From assembly GCA_043812195.1 (NCBI GenBank), contig JBDRML010000029.1, positions 1 through 64,000 on the forward strand: a DNA stretch of 64,000 nt. The letters run 5' to 3'. A program made the translations under genes and the position numbers. This document shows, piece after piece, positions 4,882 through 64,000 of the stretch. Numbering within the stretch: position 1 is the stretch's first letter; each line of letters begins with the position of its first letter. Origin of the DNA: Candidatus Woesearchaeota archaeon. GTDB lineage: Archaea; Nanobdellota; Nanobdellia; SCGC-AAA011-G17; PNOQ01. The notes beneath the pieces are model-generated. The model had not been told where the DNA came from, made no database searches, and saw only the letters and a program-made list of their open reading frames with translations.

Positions 4882-5105
4882 ATATGAAAAAACGCAAAAC
4901 ATTCCAACTTGATGAAAGAACAACAAATGACTTAGAAAGATTGGCTAATGATTTTGATCAATCAGATACCAAAACACTTAAAGACGCAATTAATTTATTA
5001 AAAGCATATACTGAAAAATTAGAAAAAGGCTACAAGCTAATATACTTTAATCCAGAAAATAAAAAATCACAAGTAGAAGTTGTATTATTAGGATATGATT
5101 TATAA
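4878..5105 (+). CDS. ribbon-helix-helix (CopG-like) DNA-binding protein
   Basis: KRKTFQLDERTTNDLERLA...SDTKTLKDAI pattern; ATG overlaps the upstream stop. Confidence 0.55.
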   Translation: MNMKKRKTFQLDERTTNDLERLANDFDQSDTKTLKDAINLLKAYTEKLEKGYKLIYFNPENKKSQVEVVLLGYDL

Positions 5106-7796: not shown

Positions 7797-8285
7797 ATGA
7801 AAATAAGAAAGGGCATTATATATGATATTGGAATTCTTGGATTCTCTATAATTTTAGGTAGCACAGGACTTTTTATGTATTATACATCTTATTCAATACC
7901 AAAAGTACATCAAGAAGAATTTTCAATGCTAAAATCAGAAAAATCAAAAAGAGATGTATATGAAAGAACAAAATCAAATTTAGATGATTTACTAAAAAGT
8001 AATCCAAACAATTCAGAATTAAGAGAATCTCTTTCAGGGAGTAAATCAATTATACAAGAAAAAATTAATGATTTATCAGCAAAAATTGACAGCTTAGAAA
8101 ATCTACCAGAAGTAATAGAAGTAAAACAAACAATGAGAGAGAAAAAGACAAAGGGAATGAATTGTGTATATAGTACTCTTATTGGATTCGGAATAGTATT
8201 AGGTTCTGCATACAAAATTATTCAAAATATCACACCGTTTCCATATTTTAGAAGAAAGAAAGAATCAAAAACCAAACCTAATTAA
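7797..8285 (+). CDS. hypothetical two-TM coiled-coil protein
   Basis: N- and C-terminal hydrophobic helices and a basic tail. Confidence 0.55.
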   Translation: MKIRKGIIYDIGILGFSIILGSTGLFMYYTSYSIPKVHQEEFSMLKSEKSKRDVYERTKSNLDDLLKSNPNNSELRESLSGSKSIIQEKINDLSAKIDSLENLPEVIEVKQTMREKKTKGMNCVYSTLIGFGIVLGSAYKIIQNITPFPYFRRKKESKTKPN

Positions 8286-42333: not shown

Positions 42334-42993
42334 ATGAGAATCACCAAGAAGTTAGCAGAGTTATGTGGTATCATAGTTGGAGATGGTTGTATAACTTATT
42401 ATAAAAAGAATGGTGATTATAAGGTAGAAATTTTTGGAGATTATAAAGAATTAGAATATCATAGTTACATAAAAACTCTTTTCAAAGAAATATTCAATAA
42501 AGAGCCAAAAACAAAATTGAATAAAGATGGAATTTCTCTTTGCTTACATTCAAAAGAAGTCTTAGACAAATTGATAGGATTAGGTATTCCAATAGGAAAG
42601 AAAAAAGATGTAATTAGAATTCCTCCCAAAATAATGTCAAACAAAGGATTAACAAAATGTTTTATTAGAGGATTAGCCGATACAGATTTCAGTGTTTGTT
42701 TTAAAAAAGGAGGAAGAATCAAAAACTCTTATCCTAGAATTACTGTAGAAATGCATTCTAAAAAACTGATAAAAGATATAAAACTAAGTTTGGAATCTTT
42801 AGGAATTACATGCTACTACTATGAAAGAACCAGAAATACACCTTTTGGTATATTTCAATCATATAGTTTAGATATAAATGGAAACAAAAAATTTGAAAAA
42901 TGGATGAGATTAATAGGATTTAAAAATAAAAAACATCTATCAAAAATAGAATTCTGGAAGAAAAACGGATATTATCAAAAGAATTGTTCTTAA
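42334..42993 (+). CDS. free-standing two-motif LAGLIDADG endonuclease-family protein
   Basis: LAELCGIIVGDG and FIRGLADTDFS motifs, YPRI, KWMRLIGFKN; own TATA box. Confidence 0.88.
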   Translation: MRITKKLAELCGIIVGDGCITYYKKNGDYKVEIFGDYKELEYHSYIKTLFKEIFNKEPKTKLNKDGISLCLHSKEVLDKLIGLGIPIGKKKDVIRIPPKIMSNKGLTKCFIRGLADTDFSVCFKKGGRIKNSYPRITVEMHSKKLIKDIKLSLESLGITCYYYERTRNTPFGIFQSYSLDINGNKKFEKWMRLIGFKNKKHLSKIEFWKKNGYYQKNCS

Positions 42994-46228: not shown

Positions 46229-46880
46229 AGGAGATAAGCAAAAATGAAAGTACAAATTCCAAATGAACCAACAATCAATTTAGCAGAAGAGTTCGGAATA
46301 CATATTGGTGATGGGAGTATGAACTTTTATAAAGAAAAGGGATTGGTATCTATAGCAATAAATCCAAACGAAAAAAAATATATGGATTTCATTAAAAGAC
46401 TTTATTGGAGTCTATATAAAGTAAGTGTTAACTTAAGAAATTGGAGTAGGGCATATGGATTTCAACTAAGCTCTAACGAATTGGTTGAATTCAAATATAA
46501 ACAAGGTCTCCCATTAGGAAAAAAGGAAAATATAAATATTCCTCATTGGATAAAGAAAAACGAACAATATCAAAAAGCATGTCTAAGAGGAATATTTGAC
46601 ACAGATGGTACACTGTATATTGAAAAAAAGTACAATAAACCCTATCCAAGAATACAAATTTCGAGTATATCTCAAAATTTAATTAAAGATATACATGAAA
46701 TATTAGTCAATTTGGATTTTAAAGTTAGTCTATGGAAAGAAAATTTTAGAAATAAGAACTGGAAAACAAGACATGTAATTGCCTTAAGAGGATATAAACA
46801 AGTTCAAAAATGGATGGATGAAATAGGCACTAATAATCCCAAAAATTTAGAAAAATATAATAAGCTTATCTTCAGGTGAA
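46229..46880 (+). mobile_element. BHB/BHL-type tRNA intron encoding a homing endonuclease
   Basis: Terminal stem GGAGATAAGC/GCTTATCTTC, central helix CACT/GGTG, bulges TG^A and AA^G, outer helix AGAG/CTTT. Confidence 0.88.
46244..46879 (+). CDS. intron-encoded two-motif LAGLIDADG endonuclease
   Basis: LAEEFGIHIGDG and CLRGIFDTDG motifs; ORF lies wholly inside the tRNA-Lys intron. Confidence 0.9.
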   Translation: MKVQIPNEPTINLAEEFGIHIGDGSMNFYKEKGLVSIAINPNEKKYMDFIKRLYWSLYKVSVNLRNWSRAYGFQLSSNELVEFKYKQGLPLGKKENINIPHWIKKNEQYQKACLRGIFDTDGTLYIEKKYNKPYPRIQISSISQNLIKDIHEILVNLDFKVSLWKENFRNKNWKTRHVIALRGYKQVQKWMDEIGTNNPKNLEKYNKLIFR

Positions 46881-60262: not shown

Positions 60263-61195
60263 ATGAAACTTAAAACAAATCAAATCAAAATAATTTGTAA
60301 TAAACTTAAATGTGACTTAATTAGCGGGCGTTTGCTGGCTCGCGGAAGCCATAATGAAAGTTATTTAATTAAAACGAAAAAGAAGAATTACATACTTAAA
60401 GTAGAGAATAATCCAGGTTACGTTAAGAGAGAATACAAGATGCTTGCTGGTTTAAAAGAAGGTCTTGCTCCAAAAGTTTATTTCTTTGATTCTTCTAGGA
60501 AGATAATACCAAAGCCATATCTAATTGAAGAATTTTTAAAAGGAAAAAATCCACCAAAGAAAGCAAATAAAGGTTTTATAATTCAAATGGCGAAATGGTA
60601 TAAAAAGCTTCATTCAATCAAATCCTTAAAAATACCCAATGATGAGAAGAAAAGAATATATTCATTATTCTACTGGTTTGAATCAAATTATAAAAAATTT
60701 GAAAAAAATAAAACCATGTTGGATAAAAAATTAGGCAAAGAAATATCTGATAAATTTAAACGAGCTTTGGAAATTTGTAAACAAAATGATAAAATATTTT
60801 CAAACATAATTAATTTCTCATTAAATCACAATGATCCCTCTAAAGAAAATGTATTTATTAATAAAAAAAAGATTAGACTGATAGATTGGGAATTTTCTGG
60901 ATTTGGAATTCCAGAAAGAGATATTCTCACTTTTTTTAGGCAATATAAACTAAATAAGAATCAGAAGAATCTATTCCTTAAATCCTACAAATATCCAACC
61001 AAGAGCATTAAAAAGCTTAATGTGTTATTCTTAATACTATTAGCTTCAGATATTAATTATCTGATAAACCGCTTAAATTCTGTAAAAGAAGGAAAAATTA
61101 GTTCTAAACAGCAAAACACAAATGAAAGTTCCCTAAATAAAAGGATTTTGGAGATTTTTTGTATGTTTAAGATAGCTTTAAAAGAAATTGATTAG
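60263..61195 (+). CDS. aminoglycoside phosphotransferase/choline kinase family protein
   Basis: GSHNESY, YILK, REY, HNDPSKENV, LIDWEFS. Confidence 0.88.
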   Translation: MKLKTNQIKIICNKLKCDLISGRLLARGSHNESYLIKTKKKNYILKVENNPGYVKREYKMLAGLKEGLAPKVYFFDSSRKIIPKPYLIEEFLKGKNPPKKANKGFIIQMAKWYKKLHSIKSLKIPNDEKKRIYSLFYWFESNYKKFEKNKTMLDKKLGKEISDKFKRALEICKQNDKIFSNIINFSLNHNDPSKENVFINKKKIRLIDWEFSGFGIPERDILTFFRQYKLNKNQKNLFLKSYKYPTKSIKKLNVLFLILLASDINYLINRLNSVKEGKISSKQQNTNESSLNKRILEIFCMFKIALKEID

Positions 61196-61286
61196 TGTTA
61201 TCAATAATCTTCGGAACTATTATCCAATTTTCTTATAATGCAAGTTTCCCCCTTTACATTACGCATTTAAATACAAAAAAATAAGC

Positions 61287-61300
61287 AAAAACTTTATAAA
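61287..61300 (+). promoter_or_regulatory. BRE-TATA promoter of EF-2, probably a leaderless transcript
   Basis: AAAAACTTTATAAA ends 24 nt before the ATG at 61325; similar motifs precede rps12 (~54891), rps2 (~24471) and tRNA-Tyr (~42115). Confidence 0.7.
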
Positions 61301-61324
61301 CAATTCCAATTCTCAAATTCTGTA

Positions 61325-64000
61325 ATGGCAGAAAAATCAGTAGAACAAATAAAAAAAGTAATGAATAACCCAAGCCATATAAGAAACATCGCTATCGCAG
61401 CCCATATCGATTTTTTTTGAGATAAATTCTCAAAAGACGAGTGCATGGGAAATGCATAGCACCAGATTCAAGGCTCATTCTAAGAGATGGAACTATGTTA
61501 ACTGCTAAAAAATTATTTAACTTAGCAGAGAAAAAAGGAACAAAATTTGAAGAAACGAAAGACCATATAATTTATGATACTAACTCATTAAATTTAGAAG
61601 CATTTTCCCTAAACAAAACTAATGGAAAATTAGAAAAAAAACCAATACAACTAGCCTGGAAATTAAAAGGTGGGGACTTAATAAATATTAAATTAAGAAA
61701 CAATTTCAACATTTCCACAACACCAGAACACAAATATTTAGTCTTAGAAAATTTAGAGTTTACAGAAAAAGAAGCTAAAGATATAAAATTAGGAGATAGA
61801 ATAATCTGCCCAAGAAAGCTTGAAACTAATTCAAATATTAACATAAAACGCACAATTCTACTAAAATTAGCTGAAAAAAGATTTTACGTTAAAGTAAACA
61901 AAATCTTAGGAGAAAAAATAAAAAAATTCGTTCTGAAAGAAAAAGAAACAATAAAAAAAATAAACAAAGAAATAAAGTATAAATCATTTTATCATGGTTC
62001 ATGGCAAAATAGATATTTATTAAAAGACTTAATAGAAATTTCAAGTTTAATAAATATAAACTTGGAGTATTTGTATAACAATATAGAAACAATAATTTAT
62101 AGAAGCGGAGCTCAAAGAGGAAAAAGCTCGCTGCCAACAAAATTACCACAAAACTTTCAAAACTTTTATTATCTAGCAGGATTGTTTGTAGGAGATGGAC
62201 ATCATAAAAAATTCATAGTCGGAAAAAATGAGTTAAAATCTAAATTTGTAGAAATTTGCAATGAATTAGGAATAAATGTAACATATAGAAATTATGAATA
62301 CAGAACAGAAGAAATAGTAACAAACGCTACCTTATTAGAAATATTAAACTCATTATTTGATTATCCAAAAGTCAAAAAAAGCCATAATGTAAAAATATCA
62401 GAATTTCTTCTACTATCTCCAAAAAAATATTCTTCAAAATTCTTAAGAGGATACTTCGATACTGATGGATGTGTAGAAAAAAGCAGAAGAGCAGTAACAA
62501 TATCGTCTGCCAGTGATAAAATGATAGCAGATTTAAGTATGTTTTTATTAAGATTCGGTTGCATACCAATCATAGAAAAAGACAACACAATAACAATTAG
62601 TGGACAATCCATGATAAATTTTATAGCAGAAATAGGATTTGAAATTAAAGCAAAAATAGCCAAAGCAAACTCCATAAAACAAACAATAATCGGAAGCATG
62701 GTTTCAGATGTTATACCAGTAACACATAGTAACGGAATGATTTCACTACAAAAAAACTTCACCAATTCAGAAAAATTAATTAATTTTTGTGAAAAAAATG
62801 ATATCAGCATAGAAAATATAAGTAAAATATTAAGTAAAGATATCTCATACATAGAAGTAAAAGCTATAGAAACAAAAAATGAAGAATTTGTATATGACTT
62901 CACAGTAAAAGACAACCATAACTTTGCTGCAGAAGGTATGATTATTCATAATACCACATTTTCAGACAATCTTTTAGCAGGTGCAGGCATGATTTCTAAA
63001 GAACTAGCAGGTAAACAATTAGCCTTAGATTTTCACGAAGATGAGGCAACAAGAGGTATTACAATAGATTCAGCTAGCGTATCTATGCTTCACACAGTAA
63101 AGGGAGAAGATTACTTAATCAATTTAATAGACACACCAGGTCACGTAGATTTTGGTGGAGATGTTACTAGGGCTATGAGAGCAGTTGACGGTGCAATTGT
63201 ATTAGTAGATGCAGTTGAAGGAATAATGCCTCAAACAGAAACAGTTCTAAAACAAGCTCTAAGAGAAATGGTAAAACCAGTTCTTTTCATAAATAAAGTT
63301 GACCGTTTAATCAAAGAAGTTAAACTAACACCACAAGCAATGCAAGAAAGATTCATTAAAATTATATCAGACGCTAATGGGTTCATTGAAACTTTTGCAC
63401 CAGACGAATTCAAAAAGAAATGGCAATCAAACGTACAAGACGGAAGCGTAGCTTTTGGTTCAGCATTTCATAATTGGGCATTAAGTTTCCCATACATGCA
63501 AGAAAAAGGAATAAGCTTCAAAGATATTATAGATGCTTATGAAAAAGAAGATTGGAAAATTTTAGCAAAGAAAGCACCATTACATGAGGTTGTTTTGGGT
63601 ATGATAATTAAACACCACGTAAATCCAATCACAGCACAAGCATACAGAATTCCAAAAATATGGAAAGGAGATTTAGATACAGAAATAGGAAAATCTTTAT
63701 TAAATTGTGATCCAAAAGGACCTGTAGCATTTATAGTAACAAAAATAGTAATAGATAAACATGCAGGAGAAGTATCTGCAGGAAGATTATTCTCAGGAAC
63801 ATTAAAACAAGGTGATGAAGTTTGGCTTAACATGGGTAAAAAGAAAGTTAGGTTACAACAGGTATCAATTTACAAAGGCGCACAAAGAACTGCTTTTAAT
63901 GAAATTCCAGCAGGAAACATAGCAGGTTTAGTAGGATTAAAAGATACATTCGCAGGTGAAACTATATCTTCAGAACCAATGGAACCTTTCGAAGCAATTA
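61325..64000 (+). CDS. fusA: translation elongation factor EF-2, 5' part, interrupted by a 32-nt intron and a 500-aa intein; runs off the window
   Basis: Exon 1 (61325-61411) MAEK...IRNIAIAAHID; exon 2 from 61444 HGK-[intein]-TTFSDNLLAGAGMIS...RGITI...LIDTPGHVDFGGDVTRAMRAVDGA...FINKVDR. Confidence 0.96.
61412..61443 (+). other. candidate BHB pre-mRNA intron (32 nt) in EF-2
   Basis: Exon helix CCCAT/ATGGG, central helix ATCG/CGAG, bulges AT^T and TG^C, 10-bp intron stem with TAAAT loop; removal restores AHID-HGK in frame. Confidence 0.85.
61453..62952 (+). mobile_element. intein with LAGLIDADG homing endonuclease domain in the EF-2 P-loop
   Basis: Starts CIAPDS after HGK; block B TTPEHK; YYLAGLFVGDG and FLRGYFDTDG; ends VYDFTV..NHNFAAEGMIIHN followed by Thr; 1500 nt, with both ends in the same frame. 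Confidence 0.95.

Follow-up and report, generated by a model that had tools for sequence, protein, structure and literature searches.

A candidate bulge-helix-bulge intron in the EF-2 coding sequence of a DPANN archaeon and its possible ties to homing endonucleases

The gene for the translation GTPase EF-2 lies, in interrupted form, near the end of a stretch of 64,000 nucleotides (nt) from a Candidatus Woesearchaeota archaeon (assembly GCA_043812195.1, contig JBDRML010000029.1, positions 1 to 64,000; the whole stretch is called the window here). The window is part of contig C29 of a 938,338-base genome in 45 contigs that is 90.4% complete and has 29% G+C. EF-2 begins at 61325 on the forward strand, and 29 codons lead to ...Ala-His-Ile-Asp in the P-loop (G1 motif), the Asp codon GAT occupying 61409-61411. 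The His codon that should follow (CAT, 61444-61446) is separated from it by a 32-nt insert, 61412-61443, which holds an in-frame TGA (61418-61420) and also shifts the reading frame. Here we describe why this insert is very probably an archaeal bulge-helix-bulge (BHB) intron within the coding sequence of EF-2, spliced by the endonuclease EndA and the ligase RtcB, and discuss how such introns may have come to occupy the P-loop in a DPANN order.

Because of the insert EF-2 appears as two frames in the list of open reading frames (ORFs), one at 61325..61420 (31 amino acids (aa), ending ...AHIDFF and a stop) and one at 61441..63999 (853 aa, beginning MHGKC... and still open where the window stops). 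Pfam finds GTP_EFTU (6e-44), GTP_EFTU_D2 and EF-G_D2 on the long frame, split by Intein_splicing and LAGLIDADG_3. The split is caused by an in-frame intein between the Lys and Thr of the P-loop, 9 nt downstream of the insert. It has Cys1, a TTPEH motif (block B) at residue 90, LAGLFVGDG at 243, a C-terminal ...IIHN and Thr at +1. The P-loop coding sequence thus comes in three pieces, AHID / HGK / T, and with insert and intein in one loop the GTP-binding site would need both RNA and protein splicing. The predicted mature EF-2 has 32 + 689 = 721 aa, and the frames of relatives have 718-749 aa. An earlier sequence-only reading of this DNA had placed the GAT, the CAT, the gap of 32 nt, the TGA and the frameshift correctly, as the sequence and the ORF list confirm. 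Its description of AHIDHGKT as split by 32 nt holds for the split, but it overlooked the intein, and removal of the 32 nt does not yield AHIDHGKT; the intein follows HGK and the Thr is not reached until 62953.

The RNA of the insert and its flanks has the architecture expected of a BHB splice site. Without constraints, the minimum free energy (MFE) structure computed by RNAfold for 61396-61454 is a strict helix-bulge-helix-bulge-helix (-16.1 kcal/mol, z -2.72), and only 2 of 200 shuffled sequences are as stable. The motif is also present in a context of 129 nt (-27.4 kcal/mol, z -2.50, 3 of 200 shuffles). The sequence-only reading had drawn the same fold. An outer helix of exon with exon, a central helix of exon with intron and a long hairpin within the intron are separated by two bulges of 3 nt each (Table 1), and the order of helices and bulges is that generally known from pre-tRNA introns at position 37/38. 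Archaeal EndA cleaves after the second nucleotide of each bulge. Applied to the predicted bulges, this rule excises exactly 61412-61443 and brings ...AHID|HGK... back in frame, an earlier claim that is borne out both here and in the relatives. Among 11,400 combinations of start and length at the locus, the removal that restores the frame ranks first, alone, as a strict BHB. No Rfam family matches within 61250-61550 at E values up to 1.

Table 1. Predicted and annotated features of the interrupted EF-2 gene in the window
Feature	Position	Strand	Basis or remark
TATA-like box, TTTATAA	61293..61299	+	about 26 nt 5' of the start codon; putative, from the sequence
EF-2 exon 1, 29 codons, first half of the G1/P-loop	61325..61411	+	alignment to the N-terminal ends of uninterrupted EF-2 genes in relatives
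Outer exon-exon helix h, 5 bp, CCCAU/AUGGG	61401..61405 with 61445..61449	+	MFE fold; 88% of helix cells paired in 20 aligned introns
Central helix H, exon strand AUCG	61406..61409	+	partner 61438-61441; three pairs (61407-09/61438-40), A61406/G61441 unpaired
Bulge 1, 3 nt, AU^U	61410..61412	+	predicted 5' cut 61411/61412
Putative 32-nt intron with in-frame TGA	61412..61443	+	sequence; contigs of three runs cross it without gaps
Intron hairpin h', 10 bp (61413-22/61428-37), loop UAAAU (61423-27)	61413..61437	+	MFE fold, relatives
Central helix H, intron strand CGAG	61438..61441	+	MFE fold, relatives
Bulge 2, 3 nt, UG^C	61442..61444	+	predicted 3' cut 61443/61444
Exon 2 start, His-Gly-Lys, last three N-extein codons	61444..61452	+	sequence
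In-frame intein, 500 aa, with LAGLIDADG homing endonuclease	61453..62952	+	Pfam Intein_splicing 2.7e-28, LAGLIDADG_3 7.1e-15
EF-2 C-extein from Thr-Thr-Phe-Ser-Asp, 689 aa in all, continuing beyond the window on C29	62953..64000	+	Pfam, open codons

The genome encodes the enzymes that such an intron would need, as the sequence-only reading had presupposed. EndA is present in one copy of 181 aa on contig C3, with an N-terminal and a catalytic domain (PF01974, 4.7e-27, and PF02778), a size that we take to be that of the homotetrameric (alpha) type. RtcB is likewise present once, on contig C8 (1.2e-144). Introns are called in 9 of the only 29 tRNA genes found by aragorn, and probably some tRNAs were missed by this program owing to introns at unusual positions. 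On contig C13 a strong BHB of 33 nt (8252-8284, minus strand) is situated next to a tRNA-like stretch. A genome-wide scan for strict BHB motifs that join ORFs gave 4,255 raw motifs, of which 115 passed the ORF filter, and found the EF-2 site again. Among the 21 candidates of 28-38 nt, which were inspected by eye at the junction, EF-2 has the longest intron stem; the others (21 of the 115 inspected, by eye and without a homology check) have the appearance of ordinary gene junctions or of a tRNA-like stretch.

Similar inserts occur patchily among relatives. EF-2 is mostly uninterrupted in 61 close genomes, and several of them have an insertion at this site, some together with an intein and some lacking one. 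Across the order the census rested on two DNA patterns, which overlook an insert wherever the allele has different residues or codons. The first, Ala-His and His-Gly-Lys parted by an insert of 28-42 nt, was matched in 32 of 240 genomes and in 29 of 132 genera, and the second, an insert between His-Gly and Thr-Thr, in 7 further genomes, giving 39 of 240 genomes with an insert in the P-loop or about one in six. Reversed patterns, used as controls, had 0 matches. Outside the order, where only the first pattern was applied, 172 genomes of the class were sampled and a single one gave a match, in a sequence that is not EF-2-like. Confirmed cases, which are not a full census of inteins and from which no association is claimed, comprise five genomes with both intron and intein (this genome, G000, together with G006, G032, G038 and G113) and 13 with an intein and no intron.

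Structures were drawn for 35 of these loci including the window. L064 (G037), L068 (at a contig end), L072, L075, L077, L081 and L083 were dropped. The inserts are 30-38 nt long, their lengths are generally not multiples of three, and they occupy five insertion points that span 14 nt. Most common is the position of the window, after Asp (22 loci), followed by a position inside the Ile codon (AT|N, 6 loci). Four loci have the insert in the Lys codon behind its first base (A|AA) and one behind its second, and two have it after the preceding His. At each insert-bearing locus the removals scored were those that restore the pattern IRN....H..HGK. The fold around the predicted splice site has 3 or 4 of the 4 central-helix pairs and 3-nt bulges in the canonical register at 33 of the 35 loci, the full four pairs being present in 17, three in 16 and fewer in 2. 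A scan blind to coding, with 11,400 candidates per locus, returns the frame-restoring removal as the unique best strict BHB at 16 of the 35 loci; these include the window, and of the 22 loci with an insert after Asp, 15 are represented. Likeness between introns does not track taxonomy, although the signal is weak because the sequences are short: the nearest intron to that of the window is 84% identical and comes from another family, and only 1 of 20 introns has its nearest neighbour in the same family. Among the dropped loci, L064 (G037:C15:14677-15327) is an EF-2 that appears, next to its relatives, to lack about 10 nt over Ala-Ala-His of the P-loop, with a shift of frame, in a genome that is 74% complete. 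An intron lost imprecisely, a pseudogene or a faulty assembly could explain it.

The 20 aligned Asp|His introns were used for covariation tests against 500 shuffles and slid controls. Cells of the predicted helices are paired in 82.1% of cases as against 68.0% in the shuffles, and the covariation score is 0.451 as against 0.169; none of the 500 shuffles reaches the observed value in either test, and the best slid control scores 0.229. Covarying stems at this site in related genomes, which the sequence-only reading had proposed to look for, are therefore present. The five outer pairs of the intron stem each take 4-5 pair types across relatives, and both sides have changed in 9 of the 19 pairs. 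At pair 11-48 the synonymous wobble base of the Ile codon follows the base of the intron without exception (C-G in 14 introns, U-A in 6).

The 20 intron alleles were compared with 23 plain alleles, the latter mostly from one family, and synonymous sites within the helices are skewed towards the pairing base in the intron alleles relative to the plain ones. Ala is GCC in 16 of 20 intron alleles and in 2 of 23 plain alleles, and Ile is ATC in 14 and 3, respectively. The first His is CAT in all 20 (plain 16 of 23) and the second His in 19 (plain 11 of 23), and Gly is GGG in 11 (plain 3 of 23).

Several observations weigh against the intron, or at least reduce the force of the evidence for it. The central helix of the window itself consists of three pairs and an A/G mismatch only. 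G153 requires a 3' bulge of 4 nt, the Lys-codon case G053 has 2 of the 4 central pairs, and the six Ile-codon introns have a weak outer helix. Because the sequences are kin, the shuffle statistics and the codon contrasts overstate independence, and co-conversion tracts left by homing could be an alternative source of the codon skew in the exons. Two of the 39 genomes may not be separate cases: the EF-2 start regions of L058 (G209:C25) and L059 (G069:C37) are identical over 651 nt including the intron, even though the genomes are assigned to different families, and the same DNA may have been binned twice or transferred very recently. As the genome is 90% complete, a second fusA may lie in the missing tenth. 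No RNA run was listed with the locus (61000-63000), and the metatranscriptome X11 gave 0 contigs. Even so, the codon and pairing pattern is what a selected BHB would predict, and not the outcome expected of translational bypassing, of a misassembly or of a pseudogene.

Taken together, structure, exactness, covariation and context strongly support a BHB intron, and from them we infer the cleavage and ligation themselves. Pairing of the exons through CCCAU/AUGGG and of the exon AUCG with the intron CGAG would clamp the 10-bp hairpin of the intron in the pre-mRNA. The clamp would expose one 3-nt bulge on each strand, with 4 positions between them, and the single alpha-type EndA would cleave 3' of the second base in each. 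RtcB would then ligate the exons, presumably also circularising the 32-mer, and ...His-Ile-Asp|His-Gly-Lys... would be read in frame. The precursor protein would still hold the 500-aa intein between Lys and Thr, which would subsequently excise itself. An unspliced message would give a peptide of 31 aa only. From the position of the TATA-like box the EF-2 mRNA would be leaderless or nearly so.

Homing-endonuclease genes neighbour some of the interrupted genes. In G007 a LAGLIDADG protein is encoded by the ORF that immediately precedes EF-2. A LAGLIDADG ORF in this place and on the same strand is found at 8 of 22 intron-bearing loci that are free of inteins, and at 1 of 22 intron-less loci; this lone case is G012, which is of the same genus as G007. 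The LAGLIDADG ORF of G012 (locus L026, 2696-3625, minus strand) is upstream of an insert-free EF-2 in which Ser replaces the Ala before Ala-His. In the window the gene upstream of EF-2 (60263-61195, plus strand) encodes a 310-aa phosphotransferase similar to APH and choline kinases (Pfam, 1.4e-12), and the endonuclease is carried by the intein, 9 nt from the intron. Contigs of the runs X1 and X2 match the window from 61326 on with 4-6 differences and diverge upstream right at the EF-2 start codon, so in close strains EF-2 is preceded by a different gene. LAGLIDADG enzymes usually read about 14-40 bp of DNA. All five intron positions lie at most 15 bp from the insertion point of the intein, and hence inside the usual recognition span of such an enzyme.

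The genome as a whole is rich in these proteins. LAGLIDADG_3 has 26 matches in 0.94 Mb, among them those at 42661-42918 (+) and 46568-46828 (+) of the window, which is a heavy load for such a small genome. About half are in frames of more than 1000 aa, which are likely inteins in large proteins, and about half in frames of 213-430 aa, which are likely free-standing homing endonucleases. Around 13 of the small LAGLIDADG frames, a relaxed BHB scan out to 3 kb returned only noise. Some of the small frames adjoin stretches that resemble tRNA T-arms, on C25 (about 337-407), C26 (about 4939-4969) and C45 (about 65612-65679), and endonuclease genes may accordingly also be neighbours of tRNA genes, perhaps intron-bearing ones.

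These associations suggest that the mini-introns either travel with LAGLIDADG endonucleases or protect against them. We tentatively propose that the intron is a selfish passenger or an immunity patch of homing endonucleases that target the P-loop, and not a regulatory device. With the same reserve, BHB mini-introns of about 32 nt can be viewed as the RNA-level half of a homing system in this DPANN order. Naive alleles would have their conserved P-loop DNA cut by endonucleases, either free-standing upstream of EF-2 or borne by the P-loop intein. A mini-intron no more than 15 bp from the intein insertion point would destroy the target of these enzymes, and since the tRNA-splicing enzymes of the host would excise it from the RNA, the target would be broken without harm to the protein. 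Repair would then copy the mini-intron into new genomes together with the endonuclease. If this is true, the five adjacent insertion points record an arms race over one target, and EF-2 of this archaeon relies on two stacked selfish elements, one spliced from the RNA and the other from the protein. It would also be the first mechanism grounded in data for the entry of BHB introns into protein genes.

Other explanations of the insert have to be weighed against splicing. One would be a broken gene, either a decaying copy of fusA or an assembly or sequencing error that placed 32 nt in the P-loop. The frame is indeed interrupted by a stop and a frameshift, and the assembly is incomplete and in 45 contigs. 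However, contigs of the runs X1, X2 and X3, all groundwater metagenomes from three studies (one of which may be the source sample), cross 61412-61443 with 0-6 differences and with no gap, indel or joint. The DNA check proposed in the sequence-only reading thus recovers the same 32 nt, and the intact second fusA and the decay of this copy, either of which would have spoken against an intron, were not seen in the 90.4%-complete genome. The next matches to EF-2 (E 1e-6 and 1e-4) are other GTPases. The C-extein has 689 open codons, is 77-80% identical to four relatives and has a dN/dS of 0.08-0.17, with dS near saturation. This confirms, at the level of sequence, an EF-2 gene that is single-copy, intact apart from its inserts and under purifying selection. 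In addition, inserts at this site or close to it are present in 38 other genomes, with the same RNA geometry and compensatory changes, which makes a broken gene very improbable. Still harder to credit is translational bypassing, in which the ribosome would skip the 32 nt and the hairpin would serve as the bypass signal. Bypassing is known from gene 60 of phage T4 and the byp elements of yeast mitochondria, and the stop that soon follows the final sense codon, together with the stable hairpin within the gap, bears a superficial likeness to its signals. But no Asp codon that matches the take-off codon is situated directly before the resume codon CAT, and the covarying pairs maintain the central helix and the bulge spacing of a BHB, which bypassing does not require. 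The inserts of relatives also split codons (Ile AT|N, Lys A|AA), a situation that a hop from codon to codon cannot mend.

A different kind of alternative accepts splicing and holds that the intron was co-opted as a control, with EF-2 throttled by the activity of EndA and RtcB or by competition between ribosomes and splicing on a leaderless message. If splicing is obligatory the supply of EF-2 depends on it by logic, and to this extent the proposal of the sequence-only reading that EF-2 output is tied to EndA and RtcB can stand. The intron is 87 nt from the start codon, a place where failure to splice would leave just the 31-aa peptide. In the cited section of a study of Haloferax, removal of a BHB intron in a 5' untranslated region (UTR) is linked to expression of HVO_1309 (PMC7714728). 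Regulatory use of the EF-2 intron is nevertheless unsupported. The inserts are confined to 39 of 240 genomes and are missing from most close relatives, they occur at five different points within 14 nt, their similarity ignores taxonomy, and homing-endonuclease genes are attached to them. Such patchiness, multiplicity of sites, non-taxonomic likeness and attached endonucleases are the marks of a selfish element and not of a conserved regulator, and the neighbouring endonucleases point to a selfish origin. A control device is for these reasons unlikely. A BHB intron that EndA and RtcB splice out of the EF-2 pre-mRNA, as the sequence-only reading had put forward, is the explanation that geometry, exactness, covariation, the encoded enzymes and independent assemblies all support.

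The best known precedent is the BHB intron in the pre-mRNA of cbf5, reportedly described by Watanabe in 2002. In the Desulfurococcales and Sulfolobales of the Crenarchaeota the cbf5 introns are, in the cited part of Yokobori 2009, 16-44 bp long and too short to encode an endonuclease (PMC2738675). They resemble the EF-2 inserts in that they are short, without an ORF, inside a coding sequence, flanked by BHB splice sites and patchy in distribution, with gain and loss in the case of cbf5; removal by the tRNA-splicing endonuclease and ligase is a further likeness, predicted for EF-2. The EF-2 intron is not a member of the cbf5 locus family, however. Its host gene is EF-2, interrupted in the P-loop, and its lineage a DPANN order, with a single alpha-type EndA and a strict motif. 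There are at least five insertion points within 14 nt and an intein 9 nt away, and relatives have attached homing-endonuclease genes, a link that the cited part of the cbf5 paper does not report (PMC2738675).

A second archaeal case is HVO_1309 of Haloferax volcanii, whose 5' UTR contains a BHB intron of 46 nt, identified by sequencing of circular RNA and by cleavage with EndA in vitro; the cited section of this 2020 study names cbf5 as the sole other archaeal mRNA case reported (PMC7714728). The sequence-only reading knew cbf5 as the well-documented archaeal pre-mRNA intron, and this holds as a precedent in coding sequence, to which the 5'-UTR case has to be added (PMC7714728). The HVO_1309 intron is similar in size to the EF-2 insert and, as predicted for the latter, is an mRNA substrate of archaeal EndA. 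It is situated in an untranslated leader, where the frame does not matter, whereas the EF-2 insert is in the coding frame of an essential gene. In the full-text literature, a scope that leaves supplements and subscription journals outside, no BHB intron was found described for EF-2 or for a protein gene of any DPANN archaeon.

The link to homing also has parallels. Archaeal rRNA has BHB introns, some of which contain ORFs for LAGLIDADG homing endonucleases, according to the cited part of the cbf5 paper (PMC2738675). The RNA motif, the enzymes and the connection with LAGLIDADG are common to archaeal tRNA and rRNA introns and the EF-2 case, but rRNA introns carry the endonuclease inside, while here it is in the intein (window) or in a separate gene upstream (8 of 22 relatives). 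Another parallel is the collaborative homing of cyanophage psbA, for which the cited passages describe a free-standing endonuclease, F-CphI, and an ORF-less group I intron that blocks self-cleavage and is co-carried in homing (PMC6083498). Some of the intron-bearing EF-2 relatives (8 of 22) may have a comparable arrangement, with an ORF-less intron in a conserved gene and a free-standing endonuclease gene beside it. The psbA intron is a self-splicing ribozyme of a phage, in contrast to the EF-2 intron, which would need EndA and RtcB of its host and is in an essential cellular gene.

In eukaryotes, IRE1 and RtcB process a small frame-shifting intron of the XBP1 mRNA, which is cut by a protein endonuclease at stem-loops and joined by RtcB, and which serves as a stress switch. 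The part of the literature cited here gives RtcB a role in XBP-1 splicing (PMC8718801). RtcB and a small frame-shifting intron are common to the two systems; the endonuclease and the RNA motif differ, and the switch is a feature of XBP1. New in the present case are the host gene, the lineage, the several neighbouring insertion sites, the tandem arrangement with an intein and the link to homing endonucleases.

The published archaeal BHB introns in mRNA comprise one case in coding sequence (cbf5) and one in a 5' UTR. With EF-2, an essential and universally conserved translation GTPase would rely on the tRNA-splicing pathway in about one-sixth of the sampled genomes of the order. Because the insert leads gene callers to split or drop fusA, estimates of completeness and metabolic calls for DPANN archaea are distorted. 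In this archaeon a single P-loop would be rebuilt by RNA splicing and protein splicing only 9 nt apart. The connection with homing endonucleases offers a testable route for the spread of BHB introns into protein genes, and the gain of archaeal introns bears on ideas of early intron evolution.

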